Below are positions 18,744 to 64,000 of a stretch of DNA of 64,000 nt, one piece after another. The stretch comes from Selaginella moellendorffii (Eukaryota > Plantae > Lycopodiophyta): positions 773,924 through 837,923 of the forward strand of contig NW_003314289.1 of the NCBI RefSeq assembly GCF_000143415.4, in the 5' to 3' direction. How positions within the stretch are numbered: the stretch's first letter is position 1; every line of letters begins with the position of its first letter. A program made the translations under genes and the position numbers. The notes under the pieces were generated by a model. The model was not told where the DNA came from. It searched no databases and worked only from the letters and a program-made list of their open reading frames with translations.

Positions 18744-20008
18744 TTGTTTCTTTTGTCTTTGTTTTTTCAGTGTTAGCATTGTATTTGATCTATCTCCTGT
18801 GCAAGTTGGCTACAACGTCAACAAAATGTTGGTAGAAATCCGATTATTTTATTGCTTTATTTGTCTTAACTTTTTCTTCATTTTTCCTCCTACTGGTTTA
18901 GTGTGTTCTGATCTCCATGGAAACAAATATCATTTAGCAAGACTGTGACTCAAGAATGAACTTGAAACACATTGTAAGAAAAACAATAAAAAACAAAAAG
19001 AAAAACTTACAAATTTATAAATAAAATCCTCAAAATCTTGTTCCTTGCCTAAGTGTGTTGAAGGTATTTCACTAGAAGCTTAGTTTATCTCTCTTACTCT
19101 TGATTGGAGCATGAAAAATATACAATGAGAGAAATAGGATCCTAGGAAACTCACTTAGAACACCTTACATAACACACTTATAATATTTTTGCTATAAACA
19201 TCCAAGCCATCATCTCCTCTTGTTTACTCTACTCAGATTCTATAGTTTTCATAGCAAAGGTAGCAGTAAGAAGATTTGCATGCTTCCATATCTACATATC
19301 TTAGTCAATTGGTAAATGGCCTAAGCCTGAGTCTAACTTGTGATTGATTCCTAAGCCTGAAAGTATTTCTAGATTAAATATAAAATTAAATAATAATATA
19401 CTAATAACTAAAGTAAATTAAAAACATTTAAACTAAAAGAAACAGTAATTTTAAATTGTTCTATGCTAAGTACATATATTATCATCCAAAGAATTAAAAA
19501 ATTGAATTTATAAAGTTATCTGAATAGTGTTTGAAATCAATTTTATTGACTCCATACTAAATCAAACTAGAAAATCATCATAGCACTCAAAACCAGCTCA
19601 AATTACCACTCATCAATATATCTATGAATTATGATCAATCTCATGTCAATATCTATAATGAAATTACCCACACTACTAGTATCTTTATGTATCTTTATGG
19701 AACTATACTAGCTTCATCTAAATAGAATGCCAATCATAATTGTATAGAAAAAACCTAAATATATATATTAATATCATTCAAATTTCTTTATAATGTCAAA
19801 TTTAATATTTATATTTTAAACTTAAAATTCTTTAAGTTAAAAATTACATGAACATTAGAGTAAACTTTATAGAGGGGCTAATATTAGCAGTGGTAGTTTT
19901 CTATCCTTTTTCTAGATAATGTGAAAGTGAATATTCTCCAAATTATTGTTTAACTCCACTTTATAATTGAAAAAATAAGCTATTTAATTAATTATAAAAT
20001 ATAAAGTT

Positions 20009-23000
20009 TGTGAGTAATATGTATATTCAATTAGTCAAAAAAACCTTAACTTATATATAAGAGTGAATAGTCTTCAATCCAATTACTACCAAAACTCCAT
20101 TACACAATGGCATCATAATCATACATCTAAACCTTAGATCATCCCCTCCTTTTAGGAGGATTGAAGGTAGTTAAGGTTCTTATGTTGATGAGCCAAAATC
20201 TAGGGAAACATCAAGAGACACTAGTGGATTTATAAGTGGTACAATTTCTTCTTAATCTTTTTTTATGAAGTGTTTTAGTCATTTCACATACACAATTTCT
20301 AGAGGATTAGTCTATTAAATGTCATATTAAATCTTACAAACTTGCAGTCTAACTTACTAAACACTTGATATAATCCCTTCCATTAAGCAAATGACACTTT
20401 AAACAAACTATATATAGTAAGATTGGGAAAATGAACTAATATAAAGTTATCCCCTTTATAATCTAGAAGTGGAAGTGGATAATGATTAAAGTTTTTAACA
20501 CCATTGTTGTCTTACTTATACGTGGCTCTAAGTGTTTAGTAGACTCTACTCAAACTAATGAAAGGATACTTATCAAATGTTGATCCCAAGAGTTCATTGG
20601 TAGTTCATAACAATTGTGAAGGAAACTCAACTCTCATGACTATATAAAAGTTTATATGGTGAGATACTAAAGAAATTTTGAGTCTCGTGATATAAATATG
20701 CTAAAGAAATGGTAAATAACCATTTTAATTCAAATGCTAAAAATTTACATATTTTATGATCATCCCTTTGAAGGTCTCAATATTATTCCACCAAATCATT
20801 TATATGTGGATGATAAGCAATTGTGAAAGTGTGATGTCAAAATGTAAAATGCCTCAGCCATAAATGCAAGATATTATCCGAAAGAATCTGCTCTAAACAA
20901 GAATGCTGGAAAATCACTCAATTAAGTAGGAAGTATCAAATAGTAATGGTAAATACACTAGCAAGAGCAATAACTTCCACCCAATAAGTCAAGTATTTAG
21001 CTAAAAAGGCTCTATCAAATTAAATGCTACCAGCTCAAACAAATAGGGTGCTTATTCTACTTTGAAAACATGGAATTTAGAGAATCAATATCATTTTCTA
21101 ATTCATTTAATTATGCATTTTCAAAGTTAAACTCCAATTGTCCCTCCATAACATAAGCAAGAGTAATATAAGCTTTGCATCAAATGCTATACATATACTA
21201 AATGATATTATATCACATCTTTGGCCATTACAAAGACATATACAACTTCTTAATTACATAGTGATGTCCTATGTGCCCACATAAAATAGAGATTAAAGGC
21301 ACCAATAGTTAAAATGATCATCAGAATCAATAAAGTAAAGAAGGTTGTCCTCAAAACAATATTAAAAATGTAAATGGAAAAATGGGATAAGTGGTATAAA
21401 ATTCTCAAACCCATTACAAATTTTCATAGCATAACCTTTTGAGCATTACAAACTTCATTAAGAGAAGGTAAATCCATCTCTGCACCTTGTGAATACTAAA
21501 TATCAAATACAAAAACCATCAATAACTAGATTTCTCATCTAAAAAATTCACTGATGCAAGAATAACAACTCCTCAAGAATAAAAGAAAAAAGTAAAGAAA
21601 AGAAAGGAAATTATAAAAGAGTGTTAGCATTAGCCATAGAATTCTCTAGATAACAAACAATATTGAAATTATATATCTAAAGCTTTAAAGCCTATTAAGT
21701 AGTATGACTAACTAAATTCTTCCACTTTAATACTGAAGTAACCACAACATGATTACCCTTTAATAATGTTTGAGAATCATATAAGTATGCATAAAGCTTC
21801 TTAAAACCCCAAATTGTTACTAAACACTCATTCTTTATCTTGCTAGTCATAATATGTGACTAATGTATGTAATGAAGTGCTACTAATCAAGTATAATCAT
21901 GCTCTATTGTATCAAAATGCCTTTGATATTAATATTAAAAGCATCTATATGCAAGATGAAGAGTTGAGTGTAGTTAAGATATGCCAAAGTTGGAACATAA
22001 CACTTCTTTAAGATTTACAAATACCCACTTGTAGTTATAATACTAAATAAAAGACAATATTGATGACTTCAACAATATTTGCAATAGTGTAGTATGATAA
22101 ATGAGATGATCAATAAAATAACTTAGATATTATGCATCTTTCCAAGAAAGCATTGCATATCATTTACACACTTTGAAGTGGGCAACTTAAAAAAAACCAC
22201 AACTTTATAAGAATAAACTTGCAAACCCTCACAATAAATGTAGTACCCAAGATAATTCATATTCTTGGACCCAAACACACACTTTGATCACTTCAAATTC
22301 AAAATAACTTCCCATAACTAATCTAACACTTTGATATCTTTTTTAAATAGATCAAGATATCATTAATAAAGCTAACAGTCATTTTTAGCATATCAAAAAA
22401 AACTTTATTTATCATTTATTGAAAAATTGTCAAAGTATTATTCAAACCAAATAACATCATCAATAATTTATATAAATTAAATGGTAGACAGAAAATGTCT
22501 TTGAAATATCTTCTTCAACTATCAGCATGTGTTAGTACCTAAAACAAGATCCAACTTGGTGAACTAATAACTTCTCTATAAATGATTTAAAAGATCAATA
22601 GTATGAGGAAGAGGGTACACATCCAAAATAATCACATCATTTAACAAATGATAGTCAATGCAAGCTTGAATACTCTCATCAAACTTTGTCACAAGATAAA
22701 ATTCACATGCCCAAAAACTTTGAGAATTACATAAATTGAATAGAAACCTTGATAATACAATCATCCCTAATTAGAATAGGATGATACATTGGAATCTTGG
22801 TTCCAAGTGATAGGTCAAAATTGAAGAGATCAATATACTCAAAAACACAATAGAAAATAATCTAGAGACATAAGTGATGAAAGTAGATATAAAAACAAAA
22901 GGACTAAATGGAATATAGGTAAGAGGAATGGAAGAAATATCAGGGAGTAATAAACAAAAGGAAGAAGCTTCAAAGTCATATTTAGCATGATTGGACTACA

Positions 23001-23750
23001 ACTAATCCATATTAAAGATGAAATTACACCTCCACCCATAATAATTGAAGTTTAAGTTTAAAATCACTCACACTCAAAACTAAGCCCACCTCACCCCACA
23101 TACACACATGCATATAGTTGTTGTTACCAAAAATGAAAATTAGCTCTACCATATAAGATACAAATTTAGATAACAATATGTGGCAACAGATTAAGACACA
23201 TAAGATAAACTTGAACATATATCAACCAATATAGAGAGGATATTGTTGATATCAAAGCCTTTATCCATGAAACAAATGATACCAATTGATATATATAGCC
23301 ATCCTCATAATATGTTTAATAATGAATATCATGGTCATGACCACATCTTCACCTTTATCTATAGGCAATTGTGGCATCCACCTCNNNNNNNNNNNNNNNN
23401 NNNNNNNNNNNNNNNNNNNNNNNNNNNNNNNNNNNNNNNNNNNNNNNNNNNNNNNNNNNNNNNNNNNNNNNNNNNNNNNNNNNNGTAAATTATAAGAACA
23501 AGAAAGATTTAAACAATGCTAAAGTTAAATTTAAATAAAAAGCAAAATTTAATCACTCTCAAGGACAACAAAAAATATTCTTTATCTCCACCAATGTGAT
23601 TGCATGGAATAAAGAAATATGCGTGTTTGATTAACTCAAAAACCTTATCTTATATACAGAAGTGATTGGTCTAGATGAAACCAATCTAATGGCTATCAAA
23701 ATTCCACTACAATAGTAATAGTAAATAAAATTGTAATTATACACTTAAAA
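20009..23750 (-). mobile_element. Highly decayed Ty3/gypsy LTR retrotransposon, same family as 49619-54561
   Basis: LTR-like remnants at ~20009-20140 (followed by PPT complement atcatcccctcct) and ~23600-23750 resemble the short LTR. An RT remnant CIDYHLLNDVIILDVYPLPHTIDLL lies at 22576-22680. Contains an N gap. Confidence 0.75.
23385..23484. other. Assembly gap (100 N)
   Basis: Run of N. Confidence 1.
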
Positions 23751-24634: not shown

Positions 24635-25130
24635 ATGTCACTGGCTATATGTATACTTATTTTGAATCTTGTCATTTCTCCTTATCTATGTAATACAGCA
24701 AGACTATCTATTGAAAAGAATGAATCTAAATCACTTCAGGTAAGTGTTGATATTTATAAAAGAATTAAAATAAAAAATAAAAAAACTTCATTAATAAAAG
24801 GATTTGCCCGGACGGTTTGGAGAGACATGTGACCATATTCATTTGCATATAACTGTAGTTGCAGTAATGCTTGTAGGAGAATGTAAATCAAATGGTGGAG
24901 GAATTGGTAGTGTACAACTTGATCTTAACAATGGGATTGGAAATGTAAATGGAAAATTAGTCGCAGGAGGATCAGATTTTATTAAAAGTTGTGATCTTAC
25001 CACTTTTGGCATTGCTGGAAAAACAACATTACGAGGGAAATGCAAGAATATGCGAGGATATCTTCAACCTACTGAAGTGAATTTAAACACTGCAATTATG
25101 AATCATGAGGGTGAGATGTTTTTCTCTTAA
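24635..25130 (+). CDS. Secreted cyanovirin-N homolog (CVNH) lectin, copy A; exons 24635-24739 and 24801-25130
   Basis: Hydrophobic signal peptide and a phase-0 GT-AG intron, followed by the two-repeat CVNH pattern F.ETC..IHL...LVGECK...LDLNNGIGNVNGKL / SDFIKSC...TTLRGKCKN...VNLNTAIMNHEGEM. TATATAA near 24599. Confidence 0.8.
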
Positions 25131-31098: not shown

Positions 31099-31685
31099 CT
31101 AGAATACAAGATCTGTTCTAGGAGATGGTGGAGGACAAAAGAAGAGAGAACCATAATTGTTTCTGACTAGGAAATTAAGATTCAAGTGAGATGTATGATA
31201 ATAACCATGGGCATTTAGACAATCTCCCACCAAGACAGAATTTAATAGCGTGAAAGATTCCAGGTTACAAGAGCTTGGAAAATCAGCTCCCCAAGTCAAA
31301 TATCCAAATGAATTAGATATACCATTAGCAAGATCAAGCAAAACATGAGCAAATCCTCCATCTCCGGTCTTGGTTCTTGCTCCAAGCATCGCAATTCCAG
31401 CTAGTGCATAAATCTGTAAGTGTATTTCAGAGGCACTTGCTTCAAATCTACCACATACATCCTAGTAAACAAGAAGCTTAATACTAATAAAGCGAAAAAC
31501 TACAACCGTGAAATATATACCTCTGGAATTTGGTCTACACTAATGGTATCTGTAATGTTCATCCACAACTTAGTTTTATTTGTACTCCCAGATATATTTG
31601 TGCTGCTTGAGTTTCTAGCTTGAATTGAACTGTAACATATAAACAGGATTAGAAGGAACAATAGGAAGCACTTATCAAGAGCCAT
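31099..31685 (-). CDS. Secreted CVNH lectin, copy B (175 aa); exons 31685-31521 and 31461-31099
   Basis: Signal peptide, Asn/Ser/Thr linker and phase-0 intron, then DVCGRFEASASEIHL...VLLDLANGISNSFGYLTWGADFPSSC...VLVGDCLN...HLNLNFLVRNNYGSLFFC. Confidence 0.8.
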
Positions 31686-34899: not shown

Positions 34900-35515
34900 T
34901 TATCGTGGACAAAAGAAGAGAGAACCATAGTCGTTCATGACGGCATAGTTAAGGTCGGTTACGCTGCTCTGTGTTTCACCCTTTCCATCGTCGCAAGGGA
35001 TCCTTATCCTGGTTCCGCTGATGGCAATACTTGAAAGATCACACGATTGTGCAAAGTCGCTACCGGCGGGGCCGATATGGCCATTGTGGTTTCCAAGACC
35101 ATTGTTAAGTTCGAGCTGCACAGTCCCGGTGCCGCCACCAGGTGAGCTGCAGGTGGCCACCAACATTGCGATGCCATAGTTTGGAACTACGTGCAAGTGG
35201 ATTCCCGAGCACGACAGCGAGAAGCCACCGCAAACGTCCTGCATACATCTCACAAGAATCAACATGCTGAAATGTGGAAGAAGCTGACAATTTTACTTGG
35301 GGCCAAGCTGTGATCTCTTCGGTGTTGCTGTCGCCCGTGGAAAATATCTCTAAAAACTGAGGCTTTTGACTGTAGTCGATCTCCGGCCAGGCGCTGTGGC
35401 TAGAACCAGTGCTGTTGTGCTCTGGCTGTGTGTTGTTCGTCACCAGGGGAGTTGCGACATGGAGAGAAAGGAAGACTAGAAACAATGGTTTGAAAACGAA
35501 GGAAACAGCGGCCAT
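34900..35515 (-). CDS. Secreted CVNH lectin, copy C (185 aa); exons 35515-35297 and 35238-34900
   Basis: Signal peptide, linker and phase-0 intron, then DVCGGFSLSCSGIHL...MLVATCS...VQLELNNGLGNHNGHI..AGSDFAQSC...IRIPCDD...TDLNYAVMNDYGSLFFCPR. Confidence 0.82.
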
Positions 35516-48978: not shown

Positions 48979-49614
48979 ATGGCTTTAGTTGTGCAAATCA
49001 TTTTTACATTGCAATTGATCCTCTTGCTAATCTCATGTTCTTATACATATGGGTTGGAAAATGTAAAATCCAATAATATCACTCTTAGTAATGCTAAAAA
49101 TCCTTTCATGACCACAAATAAGACCATATTATGAATGAATATAAGTGACATTTCTAAAAGCGTGGATGAAATACCAGATGTAAGTCATGTTTTGCTTCTA
49201 TTGCTTTTACTTATAAAAGTTTGTGACATTTTCCAGTTTGTATGTGGGAGATTTGAAGCAACATGTACTAATATCCATCTGCATGTTTATAAAGCTTTAA
49301 AAATTATAATACTTGCAGCAAAATGTGATTCTGGGGATGGTGGATATGGGAATGTAATGTTGGATATTAATAATGGTATAAGTAACCAATATAGAAGGCC
49401 AAATAGAAGAAGTGATTTCACTGACTCTTGCAATATAGATTCTGTTCAGCTACATGGTTCAATCTTTGTAGCAAGTTGTAAGAATAAAGATTGTTATCTA
49501 GATACTTCTTATCTCCACTTAAACTTCCTTGTGATGAATGTTTTTGGCTCTTTGTTCTTTTGCCCTTTACCATCTCCTAGAATTGAACTGATTTATTTTC
49601 TATTTTATTATTAA
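48979..49614 (+). pseudogene. CVNH lectin copy D with a premature stop
   Basis: ATG at 48979 opens a signal peptide (MALVVQIIFTLQLILLLISCSY). An in-frame TGA at 49132-49134 aligns with Trp of copy B (KTKLWMNI vs KTIL*MNI). Intron 49180-49236. The CVNH domain ends FFCPLPSPRIELIYF, like copy B. Confidence 0.8.
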
Positions 49615-49618
49615 GATT

Positions 49619-52600
49619 TGTGAGGGCTAAGTGTACAGCTATGATGCTGTATACTAATATTAGTGTAGTGGGATTTTGGTAGTCGTTAGATCTTGCTCCT
49701 ATATATAAACTAGGGTTTTTTGGGCTAATTGATATGCACATTTTTTGTATTCCCTTTCCATATTCCAAGCACTCACATTGCTAGAGGTGAGGGGCACTTT
49801 TAATTGTCCTTGAGGAGTGTTTGGATTTAGGATTTTGGTTTAGATTTAGCTTTTGCATCGTCTAGATCTAGTTTTTTCCATTTCTTTTCTTTTGTTCTTT
49901 CATTTCAGAGTTTTGATTTAGATTTAGCTTTTTGCATTGTTTAGATCTATCATTTCCTTCTAGCTTTTTATCATTTCTTTTCTTTTGCTCTTTCTTTTTT
50001 GTTCATCTTCATGGCAGATCAGCAATCTCCTCCTCTAACTCTAGAGCAATAGTTGGTACAATTGCTTGATGCTATGCGTTTGCAATTGAACAACCAAACT
50101 CAGTTGATGGTAGCGTTCATGGCATGTGGTACAACTCCTCTTGCTCTTGGTGCCATCCTCACGTTTGGTCGGAGTTCTTTTGCAAGAATCTTGGGGATGA
50201 TGTGTATTATTGGTTTGATCACTTTACGGTGATTGCCCCATATCATTTTTGGGATGATGCTTGACGTTCGCATGAGTTTCCCATGTGTCATCAAGGGACG
50301 GCGTTGCAATGGTACAATGGTTTGAGCACAGCCACTCGTGGGGATTTGAGTGTTCTCCTGGACATCTTCAAATGCACCTTCGAACATGCCGACGACTGTG
50401 ATGATGCTTTTCAACAATTGCATCATCTTCGCTAAGGGCCATCTGAATCAGTGATGCAAATTTAGCGTTTGTTTCCGAAGTCTTTTGCTTCGTGTGGAGC
50501 CAAATATATCGAAGTAGATCAAGCTAGGAATGTTGTGGCCAGCACTTCGTCAAGATCTTGTTGGACTTGTGCATGCACTTGCTCTTGCCACCCTTGACGA
50601 TGCTCTTCGCTTGGCACAACATTATAAGATGTCACCTCTTCCATTTCTCGCTGCACATCCTTCCATTCCACTTCCTATGGGTGATGGTCCTGTTCCAATA
50701 GAGGTTGATGCTACTGTTGCTCGAGTCCAAGGACAAGCGTGAGGACGTGGTCATGGCCATGATGTTTGCTGCTGGGCGTATGATGAAGTTGGTCATATTT
50801 ATCAGCGTTGTCGGCATTTTCTGGATTGGTGACCTCCATTTCCTGGGTGGAGACTTTGGCGTCAGCAACGTCCCGTTAGTGCTATTGCAATGGAAGGTCT
50901 GGACACTGAGATGCATCCGGGAAACAAAGAGTCGCACGAGTAACGGATGGACCTTGCGTGAGGTTCATTCAGTGTTTACTTTCAAGGCTCATTTTTATAA
51001 CAAAAGGTCTCCTATTATTCTCTCCGTGTTAGTTGATACAGGTTTATCTTCTATTGTTCGACCTGTTGCCACACATTGTCGTCTACACTTGCGTCGTGTG
51101 GCAGAACCAGTTTTCATTCTTTATAGCAATAACCATACACATGCATATGCACGGGATGAAGTGGATATGTGGGCGATCTCGAGCGTGAGTTGCAGTCGTT
51201 GCGGGTGGTGCTGAGTCAAGCTTTTGACCTCATTCTTGGTATGAATTGATTGCTAAGTGTGACTTTGAGGATTCTCCCCCTTGTCTTATACTTCCTTATG
51301 TTTCATCTATTCCTTTTACTTTTGTACCTCTTTGTTTTTCTACTTCTACCTCTGCTTCTATTACTTTTGTTCCCCCACTATTTCCTTCTGTGTTTCCCTC
51401 TTGTTCTGCTTTTCCCTTTTCTGATTCCTCCGACGATGTTTGTGTTGCAGCGGTTGACCAGCTCATGAAGGAGTATTCTGATCTCTTTGAATTTGACCTA
51501 TTATCTAGGGCCAAGATTGCCACACGTTATCCGATTCTAACCAAGGATGCTCGTCCAATCAAGGTTTCTATTTGTCGTCGGTCACCCAAGGAGATCAAGA
51601 TTTTACATGCAAACGTCAAAGAGATGTTGGAGAAGGGTGTTATTCGAAAATTGCAGAGTTCTTGGGTATGTGAACCTCATCTTGTAATGAAGCCTGATGG
51701 GAGTATTCGTTTCTACATCAACTATCATCCGTTAAATGAAGTGACGATCCCAGATGTGTACCCTTTTCCTCATATTGTTGATCTCTTGGATCGTCTAGGG
51801 CAAAGTTATTGGTTCACCAAGCTAAATCTTGCTTTTGGGTATTGGTAAGTACCGATGGCTGAAAAAGATATTCCTAAGACTACTTTTCATACACCATTTG
51901 GTTTGTACGAGTTCTTGGTGATGCCATTTGGTTTGAACAATGCTCCAGAAACTTTCCAGCAGATGATGGACGAGGTTTTTTGTGATATGCCAGAGGTGAC
52001 TACTGACTTCATTGATGATGTCTTGATCCACTCGAAGGGGATGTGGGAGGAGTATGTTTGTGATGTTTGTAAAGTGTTGCATGTTTGGGTCCAAAGATAC
52101 AACTTATCTTGGGCATTGTATTTCTCATGAGGGTTTGCCAGTTGATCTTGACAAACTTGTGGCTGTTTTAAAGTTCCTTACTCCAAAGTGTGTGAATGAT
52201 GTGTAGCGCTTCCTTGGTAAGGTGCAATATCTCGGTCATTTTGTGGATCAACTTTCTAATTACACTACACAATTGCGAGCATTGCTGAAGTCATCAACAT
52301 CATCTTTAATCTTGTCTCTGGATGGTGAGTGGGCGTTTGNNNNNNNNNNNNNNNNNNNNNNNNNNNNNNNNNNNNNNNNNNNNNNNNNNNNNNNNNNNNN
52401 NNNNNNNNNNNNNNNNNNNNNNNNNNNNNNNNNNNNNNNCAACTCCTCTAGTTTTGGCATATCCTGACTACACTTGACCAATTATTTTGTGTATGGATGC
52501 TTTTGACATTAGTCTTGGAGGTGTGTTGATGCAAGAGAGCTTGAGTGTGCCTGGTTAGTGCCATCCCATTGCGTATATAAGCCATACATTACAACCAGCG

Positions 52601-54561
52601 GAGATGAACTACTCAACAATAGAGAAGGAGTTTTTAGCAGTAGTCTGGGGTTTCGAGAAACTTCATGCATATCTACATGGTTCTCGGACGTTATGTGAAG
52701 ATGACCGTGCTGTTGTTACTTCATTATTGAAGCGGAAGAACCTGGTTGGTTATACTACTCAATAGACTTTGAAGTTTCAGATATATGATTTTGGTGTTGT
52801 TCATTACATAAGGAGTTCTATGGCTGATGCTGATGCCCTTTTTTGAGCTCCTCTTCCTTCTCCACGCTCTTTTCATATTTCTGACGAGCCTATTATTCCA
52901 GCATCTCTAGATTTTCTAGATGAGGATTTTGTGCTGTCGGTGGTTGTTGTCTTTGACGTTCAGTGTCCACAAAGTGCAGAGCAAGATTTACCTTCTCTTG
53001 ATGAGGTTCGCGAAGCTCAAAAGATTGAGCCGTGGGTTCGAAGGCTTTGAGATGGGTTTGAGAATCCTACATCATTTGCTAATGACCTGCCTTTCCGGCA
53101 TTTACATTCTCAATATTGCCTTGATGATGACCTTCTTTATTTTGTGGGGATAGATCCTAATGATCATTTACGGCTAGTGGTGCCTTATGTATTTATTCCA
53201 CAGTTTCTCCATGCCTATCATGATTTTCCTGTTCTAGGTGGGCATATGGGACACCGTCATATAACCAAGAAACTGCGCAGTTCTTTCTATTGGCCAGAGA
53301 TGCAATATGATATTATCCGATATGTGCGTAGCTGCGTTTGGTGCCAAGCTTGTAATACTCCCCCTCATGTTACGGAAGGATGGTTGAAGTCAATTGTGGT
53401 TTCCCGTCCGTTTGAGTTGGTGGCATTTCATCTTATGGGACCTTTTCCACGGTCAACTACTGGCAATGAGTATGTTATTATTGCTTCTGACTACTTGACT
53501 CGTTGAGTGGAAGTTGGTGCTCTTGTTAACGCCTCTGTAACTGTTGTTGGATACTTCTTTATCAATCGAGTGGTGTTCTAACATTCTTGTCCAGAGCGAA
53601 TTCTTTCGGATAATGGTCCCACATTTATGGCTGAGGCATTTCATGTTTTGACGTCTCGGTTGGGGATATGCCACACTTTCAAGAGTGCTTATTATCCACA
53701 ATCAAACGGTCTTGTGGAATGGCTCATTTGGACATTCAAATGGATGATTGTGAAGTATGTGAACTTTCATCATTTAGATTGGGATGGTTATTTGTCGTCT
53801 CTTCAATATACATATGTCACAGGGGTGTAGAGTTCTGTTGGTGCTTCACCATATAAACTCTTATATAGTCATGATCCAATATTACCAATAAAGTTGGGTT
53901 TACCTTTGCGATTGTTATGAGCTGCCGATGTTAGGTCATAGGATTAGTATTTGACAAGCATTCTTCCACTTGTCCGAGTAGAGTCTGCCAAACACTTAGG
54001 CCGCATACAAGTGGGACAACAATAGCACTACAACTCCCATCATCATCCATCTGCAAAGTACAAAGTGGATGATTTGGTGTTAGTCCGTTTTCCCCATCTT
54101 AGGGTACGTGGTTTATCTAAGGGGCTTCTTGCACAGTGGAAAGGACCGTATCAGGTGTTGTGGCAAGTTGGACCACAAGTTTATGAGGTTCAACATGACG
54201 TTCAACAGGCCAATCCTTCAGAGATTGTGCATGTGTAACGGCTAAAACGCTTCGTACAAAGGGATTGGGAGGAGTTAATACCACTTACAGATCCGCTAAT
54301 GCCTCCTCCTGACGTTCCTCCAGATCCCAGCTCATCTACACGAGAACCCTTATGGTCTTCCATTATTCCGAGAGGAGGGGATGATGTGAGGGACAAGTGT
54401 ATGACTACGATGCCGTATACTAATATTAGCGTAGTGGGATTTTGGTAGCTGTTGGATTGGTTTCAATCTAAACCACTCGCTCCTGTATATAAGCTAGGGT
54501 TTTTTGGGCTAATTGATATGCACATTTTTTGTGTTCCCTTTTCATTTTCCAAGCACTCACA
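49619..54561 (+). mobile_element. Full-length but mutated Ty3/gypsy LTR retrotransposon without chromodomain; short LTRs, 4-bp TSD GATT
   Basis: 5' LTR 49619-49777 and 3' LTR 54385-54561 (TGTGAG...CTCACA), with PPT gagaggaggggatga. Internal order is gag (ATG 50011), protease, RT ([16 protein letters not shown]), RNase H and integrase (H..GGHMG, CVWC, YYPQSNGLVE, WKGPY). Many stops and frameshifts. GATT flanks both ends. Confidence 0.93.
52340..52439. other. Assembly gap (100 N; about 21 bp by comparison with the paralogous element)
   Basis: The flanks gggcgtttg and caactcctcta align to the - strand copy near 57712-57745 with 21 bp between them. Confidence 0.85.
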
Positions 54562-54618: not shown

Positions 54619-55955
54619 TGTAATACCAAGAAGAAGGGCAATACCTCCATGAATTGAATCAAGCAAAGAATGCTCAATCCAACAAATCCACACCACAAGG
54701 AATCAGGCAGCATATGACACTGCTAAGAGCCAAGAGGAGTGCACAGCTGTGAGACAAGCTCATGAATTGAGCCTAGGAGGTATTGCTCCAGCACTTCCTG
54801 TAGCGCACGTGGTTTTGACCCTTTATCCTATGGTGATTTACCATAGGATAACACCACGAAGCGGAACCTAAACCCTCTTTGTGCCACGTGACAGATGCCA
54901 TGTGTCACATGCCACGTGTCCATGCCACGTGTCCATAGGAACCCGAGGTTCAGGGCCTTGGGCCACTGAACAAACGAACGGTGCCAAACTCCCAAGCATA
55001 GAGCCAAGGAGTGATGGAACCAAACCACGGAGCAACTCTCGAGCATATAGCCCAAAGAGCGAAGGGACAGGGGCCCGGAGCGACTTGGAACAGTCCTGGA
55101 GCAACCAGCATCCTAATGCCAGGATCAGCATGCAAAACGGAGCCAAACAGAGTCTGGCACTATTTCAGCATACCGGTGGCCTAACGTGAGAGTATGGGTA
55201 CTCCACCAGCTAGCATGGAATGGAACTTGGGCTTAGACCCAAGCCGGACGCAGAACAAGGACAGGCATGCAAGCGGGAGCTAGACTATGCCTCAGGTTGG
55301 TCGGCCATGCCCGACCTACCCACTATCCCTACTATACATTTGGAACCCCCCATAGCCCCCCCCCCCTTGAGGAACACACGCTTTGGGCTTTCACCCCAAG
55401 CCTCCCTTAGTATCAGGAGTTAGTCTCTGGGACAAACTCGAAACTTACTAAATATGGAATGTCCCTAGATTGTGAATTTGGACACGGGACGAACACCATT
55501 GTGTTCGGGCCGATCTCTACATTCCGTAGATATGCCAAATGAGCGAATCTAAACACTTTCCATAAATAGCATTTGGGACCGAAATGAGACTAACACAAAG
55601 GGCATGATAGCGAGGGTGTTTGGCAGACACGGTAAGCTATCATGTAGCGATATTGAGGGACCAATCTCAATACGCGAGGGTTCTTGTCGAGCCAGTGCAA
55701 GATAGAGCAAAAGAGAACTAAGAAGCTGGGCCGAGTATGCTCAGCTAAATAGACACTTAGGAATTCCTTCCTTATGCTCATCCGGCCAAGTACAGATGCA
55801 AAGTCCAGTTTACTAACACTTGAATAAGAGGGACTAATAAAGGGTCCAGCAATACCGACCTCCTGCCATCGTGGCAGTAAGGTAAGAGTGTCCGTAAGGA
55901 CTAGCCGACAGGTAACTTTCGATACCCGAAGTCACATTCGCGACACTTCCCCACC
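54619..55955 (-). mobile_element. Probable ~1.3-kb LTR of a different retroelement family, with an adjacent PPT
   Basis: GC-richer block. On the - strand GGTGGGGAAG precedes TGTCGCGAATG (55945) and the block ends in ...GGTATTACA (54619). No TSD and no coding domain. Confidence 0.4.
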
Positions 55956-56540
55956 AAGAATGTGCTAGGAATTGTGGAGGCAACATGCCAATTAAGCTTG
56001 ATCTACAAGAACTCTAGAGTTGCAAGAAGTATATGCAATACTGGTGAAAGGAAGATGTGTGTCTTAGTTGTCGATAGGAAGATAGTACTTGAATATTTGT
56101 ATTTGAGAATAAATTGTACCAAGAATGTCAACCAATTATAAAGATAGATTTGACTGAATAATGATTCAATCCAGATAGACAGTCTAATGCTTTGCTATTG
56201 CTATTAGCATATTATTAATATTAGTATAGTTATCATGTCATACCTTGGTGGCTTCACATTTAGTGTATTTTACATTGGTGGAGTTAGGTAGAATATGTCA
56301 TTAGAGCACATATAAACACATTTTTGATAGATTTTTCTATAAATTAACTAATAAATATGATGGTTGGCATTGAATAGGATATAGTTTTAACTAAATGATG
56401 CAAATTTTTACTAGGAACATTACCAATCCTTTATTTTAATAAGTTACTAGTTGTTATACTATACAAAAATTATTATTTTAACTTGCACCAGAAAATAATT
56501 CAAGTAGAAATTTTTAAAAATCTTCTTTTATAGGTTGCTT

Positions 56541-59390
56541 TATGAGTGCTTGGAATAGGGAAAGGGAATACAAAAAATGTGCCTATCAATTAGCCCAAAA
56601 ACCCTAGTTTATATACAGAAGCGATTGGTCCAGATTGAAATTAATTTGATAGCTACCAAAATCCCACTACACTAATATTAGTATACAGCATCGTAGCCGT
56701 ACACTTGGCCCTCACATCATCCCCTCCTCTCGGAATAATGGAAGACCATTAAGGTTCTTTTATAGACAGGCCGGGATCTGGAGGAACATTAAGAGGAGGC
56801 ATTAGCGGATCTGTAAATGGTATTAACTCCTCCTGATCCCTTTGTATGAAGCTTTTTAGCCGCTACACATGCACAATCTCTAGAGGATTGGCCTGTTAGA
56901 CGTCATGCCGAACCTCATAAATTTGTGGTCCAACTTGCCACAACACTCAATATGGTCCTTTCCATTGCACAAGGAGCCTTTTAGATAAACCACGTACCAT
57001 AAGATGGGGAAAACGGACTAACACCAAATCATCCACTTTGTACTTCGTAGGTGGATGTTGATGGGAGTTGTAGCACCATTGTTGTCCCACTTGTATGGGG
57101 CTTAAATGTTCAGCAGACTCTTATCGGACAAGTGGAAGAATGCTTGTCAAATACTGATCCCACGACCTAACATTGGTAGCTCGTGGCAATTGCGAAGGTA
57201 AACCCAGCTTCATTTGTAATCTTGGTAATCCTCGTCTAGAAAATCTAGAGATGCTGGAATAATAGGCTCGTTAGAAACATGAAAAGAGAGTGGAGAAGGA
57301 AGAGGAGCTCAAAAAAGGGCATCAGCATCAGCCATAGAACTCCTTGGGCGATGAACAACATCAAAATCATATATCTGAAGCTTCAAAGCCTATCGAGTAG
57401 TACGACCAACCAGGTTCTTCAGCTTCAATAATGAAGTAACAATAGCATGGTCATCTTCAAATAACGTCTGAGAACCATGTAAATATGCATGAAGTTTCTC
57501 AAAACCCCAGACTACTGCTAAACACTACTTCTCTATCGTTGAGTAATTCATCTCTACTGGTTGTAATGTATAGCTTATATACGCAATGGGATGGCACTAA
57601 CCAAGCACACTCGAGCTCTCTTGCATCAACACACCTCCAAGACTAATGTCAAAAGCATCCACATGCAAAATAATTGGTCGAGTATAGTCAGGATATGCCA
57701 AAACTAAAGGAATTGTTAATAGCTTTTTGAGATCCACAAACGCCCACTCACAATTCAGAGACCAGATGAAAGATGATGTTGATGACTTCAGCAACGCTCG
57801 CAATGGTGCAGTGTAATTAGAAAGATGATCCACAAAACGACTGAAATATTGCACCTTGCCGAGGAAGCACTACACATCATTCACACACTTTGGAGTAGGG
57901 AACTTTAAAACAGCCACAAGTTTGTCAGGATCAACTTGCAAACCCTCATGAGAAATACGATGCCCAAGATAAGTTATGTCCTTGGATCCAAACACACACT
58001 TCAACCGCTTCAGCTTTAAACCAACGTTGCATAGCTGATCCAACACTTTATAAATATTATGAATGTGCTCTTCCTATGTCCCCTCCAAGTGAATCAAGAC
58101 ATCATCAATGAAGTTAGTAGTCACCTCCAGCATATCGCAAAGAACCTCATCCATCATTCGCTGGAAAGTTGCTGGAGCATTGTTTAAACCAAACGGCATC
58201 ACCAAGAATTCGTACAAACCAAATAGTGTACGAAATGCAGTTTTAGGAATATCTTTTTCGGCCATCAGTACTTGCTAGTACCCAAAAGCAAAATCTAGCT
58301 TGGTGAACCAATAACTTCGCGCTAGACAATCCAAGAGATCAGCAATGTGAGGAAGAGGGTACACATGGGATCATCACTTCGTTTAACGGACAATAGTTGA
58401 TGTAGAAACAAATGCTCCCATCAGGCTTCATCACAAGATGAGGTTCACATACCCAAGGACTCTGCAATTTTCGAATAACACCTTTCTTCAACATCTCTTT
58501 GATGTTTGCACGTAAAATTTTGATCTCATTGGGAGACCGACAACAAATAGGAACCTTGATTAGACAAGTCCGACAAGATCTTGACGAAGTGTTGGCCACA
58601 ACATTCCTAGGTTGATTTGCTCTGATATATTTGGCTCCACACAAAGCAAAAGACTTCGGAAACAAACGCCAAATTGCATCACCGACTCACCTTGGCAAAG
58701 ACAATGCAATTGTTGGAAGGCATCATCACAGTCGTTGGCATGTCCGAAGGCGCGTTTTAAGACATCTGGGAGAACACTCCAATCCCCACAAATGGCTACA
58801 CTCAAACCCTTGTACCACTGCAACGCCGTCCCTTGATGACACATGGGAAACTCACACAAATTTCAAGTATCATCCCAAGAATGATATGTGGTAATCACTG
58901 TGAAGTGATCGAACCAATGGTACACATCATCCCCAGGATTCCCACAAAAGAACTCCGGCCGAACGCAAGGATTGGCACCAAGAGCAGGAGGAGTTGTACC
59001 ACGTGCTGTGAACACTACCATCAATTGAGTTTGGTTGTTCAACTCCAAATGCATAGCATCAAGCAATTGTACCAATTGCTCTAGAGTCAAAGGAGGAGAT
59101 TGCTAATTTGCCATGAAGACGAACGAAGAAAGAGCAAAAGAAGAAAAATGATAAAAAGCTAAAAGGAAATGGTAGATCTAGACAATACAAAATGCTATAT
59201 CTAACCCAAAATCCTGAAAGAAAAGAACAAAAGAAAGGATAATATAAAAAATGTGCATATCAATTAGCCCAAAAACCCTAGTTTATATATAGGAGCAAGT
59301 GGTCCCGATTGAAATTAATCTGATAACTACCAAAATCCCACTACGTTAATATTAGTATACAGCATCGTAGCCGTAGACTTGGCCCTCACA
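56541..59390 (-). mobile_element. Internally deleted copy of the short-LTR gypsy family, 4-bp TSD GCTT
   Basis: 3' LTR 56541-56716 with PPT and a partial 5' LTR at ~59245-59390. gag, RT ([17 protein letters not shown]) and RNase H remnants are collinear with 49619-54561, but the protease and most of the integrase are missing. GCTT at 56537-56540 and 59391-59394. Confidence 0.92.
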
Positions 59391-60287
59391 GCTTGAAATT
59401 TGATTCCCCAATTTGATAAAAATCCTAATTTGTATTTTTTATATTTATTAAGTTTGAAACCATAATCCTATTAATAATGTTGGCAAAATATGCTTCAGAA
59501 AATATAGAGATAGTAAATATTTAACATATTAATTTATGAAAAGAATTAAATTTTAATATTTCTTTAGTATTTCTATATTAAATTTATTAATTTGATAAAC
59601 TTTTTATTTTAGATAAGTTAAATTAATTTCTACCTCTGTTATATTTTAATAATATTATTTATAACATAAATAAGCACAATCATATAAAATAAAGGTACTA
59701 TTATCTCTTTTACTTTTGTCTTATTCATTCTTCTTTATGGTAGAGTATCATCGTTCTCCTCCTTTGACTCTAAAGTGGCAATTGGTATAATTGTTTGATG
59801 CTATGTGATTATAGTTGAATAATCAAACATAATTGATAGCAATATTAACTCAACGACATGTAACTTTTAATATTCATAATTATATTTGCAACACTTTCCC
59901 CCCTTTAGGGAAAATTGGTGTATTTTTCAATACTTACTCTAGTTTAGATCATCACTAGAGAAACAATTTAAGAAAAAATTTATCATATTCAAACTTTTAT
60001 GAAACACAAATCCTTAAGCCCTAAAGTGGAGTTGAAAGTATGCCTTATGGCAGTGGTTAAAGCAGAAGTCTAATGAGTGTAACACATTTGGACTAAATGC
60101 TTAGACTTGGAAAATCAAGAGTGAGAGTGGAACTCCAAACGAAATGCTCAAGGAATGAACATGAAGCAATTGATGAATGAGTCTCTAGAAAGGGACTCTA
60201 CCTTGGACTTAGTTTTGACACTTTCATGTGTCACAACACTTATCATATATCAATCCTTATGTCCAATAAGGAGCTAAGATAAAACTT

Positions 60288-62706: not shown

Positions 62707-62806
62707 NNNNNNNNNNNNNNNNNNNNNNNNNNNNNNNNNNNNNNNNNNNNNNNNNNNNNNNNNNNNNNNNNNNNNNNNNNNNNNNNNNNNNNNNNNNNNN
62801 NNNNNN
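62707..62806. other. Assembly gap (100 N)
   Basis: Run of N. Confidence 1.
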
Positions 62807-62975
62807 TCTGGCCTCGAATTTAGACGGCTCGCGTATTAAGGTTTATCCCCACGGGGAGTCGGGCGTAGTGCCCTACGCCTGGTCGACCTATCCAACCCAT
62901 GCTAATTAGCTTACCTTCGGCGCGCCTTCAGGTCCCAACATATGCCACTTGCTCAACTTTGCAAATTGATATTTT

Positions 62976-64000
62976 TAATTGAATTTTGCATAAGTACATA
63001 GAGTTCTGCCTTGCAGAAATTCCTCCACTAGATCTCGCGCGTTCGTTAGGTTCTCCTCCGGTTCCCATGTTGCTTCGCAGTGTGGAAATCCTTTCCACTC
63101 CATGGAACTCTCTCACCTCGCGTCCTTGTCGCTTGCTCTTGCGCGCATTGAGGATGGCCTCGACTTCGTATTCCTCTTCCCCTTGGATAACCTCAGGTAA
63201 AGGTCTCACTTGGTCCTTGCGAAGCGGATCCTCAAAGTACAGCTTGAGTAAGTTCACGTGGAACACTAGGTGCATCTTCCCCATCTCTCGAGGAAGTCGG
63301 AGTTGGTAAGCCACTTTACCGATTCGTGCCTCAATCTCGTAAGGCCCCGCGAACCTGCTTAAGGAACTCAAGATCAATTCATTTACAGGAATACATGCAT
63401 CTTTAGCTTTGGGTCAACTTTCGGCTGATCCCACTTGGTAGTCTGAGGTTCTTGGTGTTCAGCCACACCTTCTCCCCAGCTTGGAACTCTACATCCCGAC
63501 GCTTCTGGTTCGCGTATTTGGTTTGCCTTTGTTGAGCCCGTTCCAAGGAATCCCTCATTAGATTCCAAATGCTGAGTCTTTCCGCCGTGAATGCCTCCAC
63601 TGCGGGCAACTCTCCATGATACTCGGCCACGCCGAGTTCCATAGGACCTTCAATAGCTCGCCCATTGATGACTTCCCATGGACTCACCCCGATACTCGAA
63701 TGTGGTGAGTTGTTATAACACATTTCCGCAAGTCCCAAATGACTTACCCAATCGGTCTGGTCTCCCGAGACATAGCATTGCAAATAATCCTCCAGCTGCC
63801 TATTCACCCTTACCGTTTGTCCGTCTGTCAAGAAGTGTTAGTGCCAACAACTTGACTTAATACCCCATACCTGTCTGTGGGTGATAGGCTATGCTGAATT
63901 TCAACTTGGTGCGATACTGTTCTAGGAGAGTCCTCCAGAACCTACTGGTGAAGATCTTATCTCGATCTGAGATGATCTCTTCCGGTCTTCCCCGTACTCG
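62976..64000 (-). mobile_element. Chromovirus-type Ty3/gypsy integrase C-terminal half plus chromodomain, interrupted by two intron-like inserts; continues beyond the window
   Basis: After removing 63870-63825 and 63406-63355 the frame reads PEEIISDRDKIFTSRFW...FSIAYHPQT/DGQTVRVNRQLEDYLQCYV..DQTDW...AEMCYNNS...KLTQ/RFAGPY...MHLVFHVNLLK...EEEYEVEAIL..., then (frameshift) WKGFPHCEATWEPEENL. Confidence 0.9.

Follow-up and report, generated by a model that had tools for sequence, protein, structure and literature searches.

How can a gene that is copied through RNA keep introns? The question is raised by one end of a 64,000-nt stretch of Selaginella moellendorffii DNA (contig NW_003314289.1, positions 773,924 to 837,923; here called the window), where the minus strand of positions 62810 to 64000 encodes, in pieces, the C-terminal half of a chromoviral Ty3/gypsy integrase. 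Intron loss is the classic proof of retrotransposition, and an earlier reading made from the sequence alone had set the two inserts that interrupt this gene against the rule that LTR elements purge introns from pol. As a general rule this holds, with known exceptions such as Ogre, and retention is not in itself new. Since Ogre already keeps an intron that must be spliced for pol, the novelty here lies in the position of the introns inside integrase.

We found that both inserts have the structure of short introns. Insert 1 is the canonical GT..AG intron that the sequence-only reading described, with CTAAC 17 nt ahead of its 3′ end. Insert 2, for which the branch point candidate is a weaker TTGAT at −23, ends in AG and begins with CT in the window copy, one base away from the GT of its sister copies. 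Both lengths are 1 mod 3, and both inserts contain stops in the upstream frame (63859 to 63857 and 63405 to 63403), so that retention breaks the frame, as had been claimed. GC content is 0.41 in insert 1 and 0.35 in insert 2, versus 0.48 to 0.53 in the adjoining exons. Insert 1 lies in phase 1, within the Asp codon of TDGQ, and insert 2 lies in phase 2, directly before the GPY/F motif. Alignment with uninterrupted homologues showed that these proteins match as far as each boundary and pick up again beyond it in a different frame, with 0 residues lost; in homologue P0001, for example, residues 52 to 94 end at 63872, and residues 235 onward start at 63356. Excision thus restores YHPQT-DGQ and KLTQ-RFAGPY, as predicted. 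The lengths also fit the introns of host genes, for which a crude scan of positions 1 to 49000 gave 15 candidates of 43 to 103 nt, including 6 of 43 to 54 nt. GT..AG ends occur in only 0.44% of 40- to 60-nt segments in this region, and chance is excluded because the joints found in RNA (63824>63871 and 63354>63407) equal the predicted ends to the base. Each insert therefore has GT..AG ends (intron 2 in the sisters) and a branch point motif, and is present in DNA and precisely absent from RNA, as U2 spliceosomal introns are. Collectively, these data confirm that the two inserts, of 46 and 52 nt, are genuine spliceosomal introns.

Short direct repeats flank both introns. Exon 1 and intron 1 close with an identical 5 nt, and AG|GT stands on either side of intron 2 in the sisters. 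Such repeats are expected for intron gain by insertion at a proto-splice site.

Table 1. Parts of the element in the window (window coordinates).
Feature	Position	Strand	Description
Exon 1, as far as the window reaches	63871..64000	-	Integrase catalytic core to YHPQT; ends at window edge
Intron 1	63825..63870	-	46 nt; GT..AG; CTAAC; in-frame stop 63859-63857
Exon 2	63407..63824	-	418 nt; region of the catalytic Glu plus connecting helices; equivalent to published short "ORF2"
Catalytic Glu position	63811..63813	-	Val only in the window copy
Intron 2	63355..63406	-	52 nt; donor CT here, GT in sisters
Exon 3	62975..63354	-	GPY/F-SH3 region and group I chromodomain; corresponds to published "ORF3"
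3′ untranslated region	62807..62974	-	Runs to assembly gap; family coverage to about 62860
Assembly gap	62707..62806	.	100 N; conceals the element's 3′ end

The order of domains across the exons (Table 1), a DDE integrase followed by GPY/F-SH3 and then a chromodomain, is that of a chromoviral Ty3/gypsy element. Exon 1 matched Pfam rve with an E value of 1.2e-4, below the curated cut-off, and is 58% identical to residues 52 to 94 of P0001; an RNA contig (X17 record 4) extends this exon 196 nt beyond 64000. Exon 2, which contains an ATG open reading frame (ORF) at 63723 to 63403, matched Ty3 integrase (E = 3.2e-5) and had 10,773 relatives at E ≤ 0.001. Exon 3 matched Pfam SH3_Tf2-1 (E = 1.8e-14) and, after a frameshift, Chromo (E = 7.3e-9). 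We infer membership in an LTR element, of which the LTRs and reverse transcriptase (RT) would lie outside the window. Within the 3′ untranslated region (UTR), no LTR or TIR is visible, the fold was no better than those of shuffled sequences (z = −0.58), and Rfam gave no match. The multi-arm fold of this region (62810 to 62975, minus strand), which the N gap truncates, includes one perfect 7-bp hairpin and likewise does not rise above shuffles.

The window copy is a decayed member of its family, broken in three places. The sequence-only reading had noted a Val in place of the catalytic Glu and a frameshifted chromodomain, and both observations proved correct: in an alignment with Ty3 Gag-Pol (PDB code 7q5b), the Val falls opposite the E of TDGQSE, a position held by Glu in 111 of 113 motif-bearing homologues, and the frameshift lies near 63098 to 63101. 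The third defect is the CT donor of intron 2.

To characterize the sister copies, we used contigs from a public sequencing run (X1, one of three runs labeled as DNA) that matched the 1191 nt of the element region at at least 85%. A total of 15,736 contigs aligned. These are short (longest listed piece, 207 nt), rare variants can drop out of them, and summed depth is not used here as a measure of copy number. Both inserts were present family-wide, and a GT donor was found where the sequence-only reading had proposed to look for one: position 63406 differs from the window copy in 50611 of 50686 units of depth. Similarly, position 63812 differs in 37243 of 37647, giving the sisters a Glu codon, which was also found in all 5 of the RNA-type runs examined. 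The sisters further carry two extra bases at the chromodomain frameshift (31 and 28 X1 contigs, as well as RNA-type runs X16, X17, and X20). Since the sisters have the GT donor, the Glu codon, and the two extra bases, the CT donor, the Val, and the frameshift are the window copy's own defects. The complete table of joints across the 15,736 X1 contigs contained no precise loss of intron 1 or intron 2. It listed 11 deletion joints, each in one contig at a depth of 8 to 18, and none equals an intron; one 375-nt deletion removes exon sequence along with insert 2. Variants shared among the sisters are found within intron 1 too (63866 at 73% and 63867 at 55% of depth), indicating that this intron predates the split into subfamilies.

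We assessed splicing in contigs from five of the six runs that we took to be RNA (X15, X16, X17, X19, and X20). The intron 1 joint, 63824>63871, was found in X16, X17, and X19, with 77, 130, and 30 letters on its short side, the last of these falling one under the bridging rule of 31. The intron 2 joint, 63354>63407, was found in X15, X16, and X17, with 250 to 255 letters. Each intron was thus precisely removed in three of the five runs, in studies P3 and P4 for intron 1 and P2, P3, and P4 for intron 2. One contig of 1083 nt (X17 record 4) skips both introns and has no stop among the 25 displayed of its 31 differences. Expression in the raw RNA-seq runs was very low (5 reads from X22 and 2 from X23 in about 12% of each run), and no splice joint was listed among these 5 and 2 reads. 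The depth bins nonetheless reveal one 150-nt X22 read that skips intron 1 (its bins add up to 150 nt, of which 15 and 19 letters fall in the two junction bins), so that the junction that the sequence-only reading proposed to map at 63870/63825 is seen in a read.

Unspliced forms were also found. Intron 1 was retained in X15, X19, and X20, and intron 2 was retained in X19 record 6 (depth 2) and partly entered in X20. These intron-keeping forms could come from pre-mRNA, antisense transcripts, or carried-over DNA; raw reads that lie within intron 2 belong to pairs oriented opposite to the spliced read. Stops in exon 2 were present in transcripts of X16, X19, and X20, indicating that dead copies are spliced too. 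Two contigs leave the element. X15 record 9, in which intron 2 is spliced and intron 1 is kept, joins unrelated sequence at 63904, just after a minus-strand AG, and may reflect either additional splicing to an exon farther upstream or a copy with a deletion. X16 record 2 departs in exon 2 at 63566 for 95 other letters and is likely an internally deleted derivative. The loose ends of the X15 and X16 contigs had no match within the window.

Next to retention in DNA and removal from RNA stands the pattern of substitution. We scored one change at a time under a rough neutral model in a small sample, 40 of the 168 X1 variant sites being shown. Among variants shared by sisters (20 to 90% of depth) in exons 2 and 3, 10 of 15 were silent, compared to a neutral expectation of 27.9% (p = 0.002). 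Exon 2 sites that vary between RNA contigs gave a similar result, with 11 silent, 4 missense, and 2 stop changes (11/17, p = 0.002), and the private changes of the window copy were neutral (4 of 11 silent, p = 0.37). The silent excess in exons 2 and 3 indicates that the spliced product was under selection, and the downstream exons were likely translated while the intron-bearing family spread.

The anatomy of the element resembles that of SM1-Galahad, a Galadriel-related chromovirus that Novikov et al. described in 2012 from the same species (PMC3350952). That element is 7.5 kb long with LTRs of >1 kb, a tRNA-Met primer binding site (PBS), and a polypurine tract (PPT); it is present in hundreds of copies at 95%, none of them intact. 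Its gag-pol ORF of 3885 bp ends in the core integrase; two shorter ORFs come after it, one of 316 bp and a final one of 309 bp that carries the chromodomain (PMC3350952; the 113 amino acids given there for the 309-bp ORF do not agree with its length). In the window, the frame ends four codons into intron 1 (stop at 63859 to 63857), and the ATG ORFs downstream measure 318 nt and, once the sisters' 2 extra bases are added to 307, 309 nt without the stop. The ORF layout of SM1-Galahad is thus reproduced, with ORF2 2 nt off (318 versus 316), in the same host and at high copy (15,736 X1 contigs). The host assignment agrees with a PPR protein encoded in the window, which groups with three named S. 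moellendorffii proteins. Shared features, as far as the published description goes, also include a main ORF that ends in core integrase, a last ORF with a group I chromodomain and an altered chromo box, and the lack of any "intact" copy (PMC3350952). The difference is that splicing would join the ORFs here, whereas that paper treats them as separate; "intron" and "splic" are absent from its main text. From the lengths, the predicted spliced product would have 1295 − 4 + 266 = 1557 amino acids, versus 1577 for SM2-Galahad, a close one-ORF sister family present in that genome at hundreds of copies (PMC3350952). The supplement of the same paper gave no sequence hit, and Galahad elements change position between its trees. 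By anatomy and ORF sizes rather than by sequence, the family is likely SM1-Galahad. An intron-split integrase would account for the failure to find an intact SM1-Galahad in 2012.

Other candidates for a relative were rejected or proved distant. The protein of SM-Tcn1 (supplement of PMC2864245) is a different, uninterrupted sequence. Word-index searches with exon 2 revealed no close sister protein (2 distant matches among 308 candidates and 0 of 7), and the best identity to exon 2 among 150 listed representatives was 50%. The HPxTDG motif is contiguous in 113 of these 150 and in 115 of 120 long proteins listed as related to P0007, the nearest homologue, all 120 being pols with RT or RNase H; because the P0007 search selects long proteins, it demonstrates only that the uninterrupted state is the usual one. 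Among the 150 representatives, 2 proteins end and 9 start at the intron sites, none with an intron-like tail. P0062 and P0153 (1298 and 1561 amino acids), considered as truncated and full forms of one product, were rejected, as both are uninterrupted pols with 37 to 51% identity. A metagenome scan gave 11 loci, all distant, of which only L005 spans the site of intron 2, and it is uninterrupted there. None of 172 pattern matches in bacterial genome contigs was a relative, and a protein atlas search gave no match.

Among the options of the sequence-only reading, DNA retention, RNA removal, and selection therefore lead us to favor an LTR family whose introns stay in its DNA and whose integrase is made only after splicing. 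The two introns are probably fixed across a high-copy chromoviral family, likely SM1-Galahad, in which unspliced RNA is likely copied and active integrase is likely made from doubly spliced RNA alone. In such a cycle, the unspliced RNA would serve as the template for reverse transcription and would also encode Gag, protease (PR), RT, and RNase H. Its integrase would be a stump that lacks the catalytic Glu, as the frame closes four codons past the start of intron 1. From the doubly spliced RNA, a polyprotein of about 1557 amino acids that includes the DDE, SH3, and chromodomain regions would be translated. In an element with a single fused ORF, splicing could thereby ration integrase against Gag and RT. 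The least certain step is that spliced RNA would have to stay out of reverse transcription. Integrase would need splicing, and yet no intron-free copy was seen among the X1 contigs, which implies tight sorting of RNAs that differ by 98 nt in several kilobases. By analogy with barley BARE1, we lean toward exclusion through a separate pool of unspliced RNA. A packaging or copying signal within an intron is a less likely means, and it is rather unlikely that intron-free copies arise and are then lost.

A bolder version, which we offer tentatively, is that an LTR lineage gained two host-type introns in integrase and reached hundreds of copies while keeping both, with splicing as a switch for the integration step alone. 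If this is true, RNA that keeps intron 1 would yield no integrase, RNA that keeps only intron 2 would yield a catalytic core without SH3 and chromodomain, and RNA lacking both introns would yield the full heterochromatin-targeting enzyme. The introns would then act as a built-in natural reporter of the way in which genomic RNA is separated from mRNA in plant retroelements.

Several alternatives bear on this interpretation. The element could be non-autonomous for integrase, borrowing the enzyme from intron-free SM2-Galahad while its own splicing is incidental host processing. In favor of this, that close one-ORF family has hundreds of copies in the same genome (PMC3350952), and exon 2 stops occur in three of the five RNA-type runs. 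We nevertheless consider borrowing unlikely, given the silent excess in exons 2 and 3 among intron-bearing sisters, the retention of the donor and the Glu codon in about 99% of depth, and the doubly spliced contig X17 record 4, which is stop-free across the 25 of 31 differences displayed. Less likely still is another option of the sequence-only reading, a Ginger-like DNA transposon built from a chromoviral integrase plus chromodomain, which would have kept its introns by moving as DNA. Movement of this kind would explain retention in every copy without special sorting of RNA, the ends of the element are outside the visible sequence, as the window ends inside integrase, and the transposases of Ginger1, with their GPY/F motif and 0 to 4 introns, are similar to complete Gypsy integrases (PMC2836005). 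The C-terminal domain of Ginger1, however, is OTU, Ulp1, or PHD, and the word "chromodomain" does not occur in PMC2836005, whereas the frame here ends after a chromodomain; GingerRoot is described without GPY and chromodomain (PMC6839031). The split pattern instead fits an element published with LTRs, PBS, PPT, gag, PR, RT, and RNase H (PMC3350952), and the long relatives are RT-bearing pols.

Bypass of the inserts by ribosomal frameshifting or read-through on full-length RNA, with splicing as a side effect, is very improbable. Frameshifting is common in Ty3/gypsy elements (PMC3735527), but both inserts contain upstream-frame stops, read-through of insert 1 would add about 15 residues to a DDE motif that is unbroken in most homologues (113 of 150 and 115 of 120), and RNA contigs show exact splicing. 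Finally, the three breaks in the window copy might suggest that a lone dead or domesticated copy received chance insertions or was invaded by introns. This would leave sisters without inserts and no spliced reads, and it failed on both counts: the introns are family-wide, so that invasion or domestication of one copy is refuted, and each of the three defects is private to the window copy. Its probability is close to nil.

The principle behind the favored cycle, in which unspliced RNA is copied and spliced RNA is translated, is known from other systems. Foamy virus makes pol from a spliced mRNA and uses the unspliced RNA as genome; there, splicing removes gag to give a separate pol mRNA, and no intron is known inside integrase. 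Among plant elements, the closest parallel is Ogre, a Ty3/gypsy element of legumes (Tat clade) that keeps an intron in its DNA and splices it out of some transcripts so that the complete polyprotein can be translated (PMC6317226, PMC4408406). The element described here shares with Ogre the intron kept in DNA and the splicing of some transcripts for pol, and it differs in being a chromovirus with two introns of ~50 nt inside integrase, one of them in the catalytic motif. It is not itself an Ogre, as it has a chromodomain and introns in integrase, and Ogre is, in the same accounts, non-chromoviral with an intron between the GAG-PROT and RT ORFs. BARE1 of barley and EVADE of Arabidopsis, both Ty1/copia, also have a short retained intron and a spliced RNA that is translated and not copied, with an uncapped, unspliced pool packaged in BARE1 (PMC3735527, PMC5580714); in contrast to the present case, their splicing breaks pol to raise Gag, which is the reverse logic.

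Outside these elements, Ginger1 resembles our family in its Gypsy-type integrase, GPY/F motif, and GT-AG introns in the coding region, and Ginger1 and GingerRoot differ in their TIRs, in having no RT, and in having no chromodomain reported, GingerRoot also lacking GPY (PMC2836005, PMC6839031). In Penelope-like elements, introns likewise survive retrotransposition, and one spikemoss Penelope family has an inferred intron; these elements, however, are described without a DDE integrase or an LTR-type particle cycle (PMC8557442). According to a 2025 review, plant LTR elements are generally without introns, the exceptions named being Ogre and EVADE, and direct studies of the export of their RNA are lacking (PMC12786077). 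A literature search that covered sources other than subscription journals, Repbase, the Selaginella genome paper, and the large REXdb supplements found no earlier report of introns inside the integrase of an LTR element. Within the literature searched, introns at this position, one of them in the DDE motif, thus appear to be new. ORF-based pipelines would call such intron-bearing families dead.

The window contains other repeats. A noncoding, LTR-like piece at about 54620 to 55900 (plus strand) has a TG start near 54620, an 11-C tract at 55356, and, at 55408, a motif that we take to be PBS-like. One stretch of it has three short motifs in the same order as in the 3′ UTR of the element; alignment of that UTR with 55.56 to 55.72 kb was not significant (score of 56, shuffle maximum of 65). 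The piece is possibly a LARD-type derivative. Two decayed, inverted copies of another Ty3/gypsy family, 84 to 92% alike, occupy 49600 to 54560 and 56540 to 59400, and an older relative of this pair lies at about 20000 to 23750. Four short ORFs (24798 to 25130, 31099 to 31461, 34900 to 35292, and 49135 to 49614) encode similar cysteine- and glycine-rich text, which we presume to resemble cyanovirin-N-type lectin domains.
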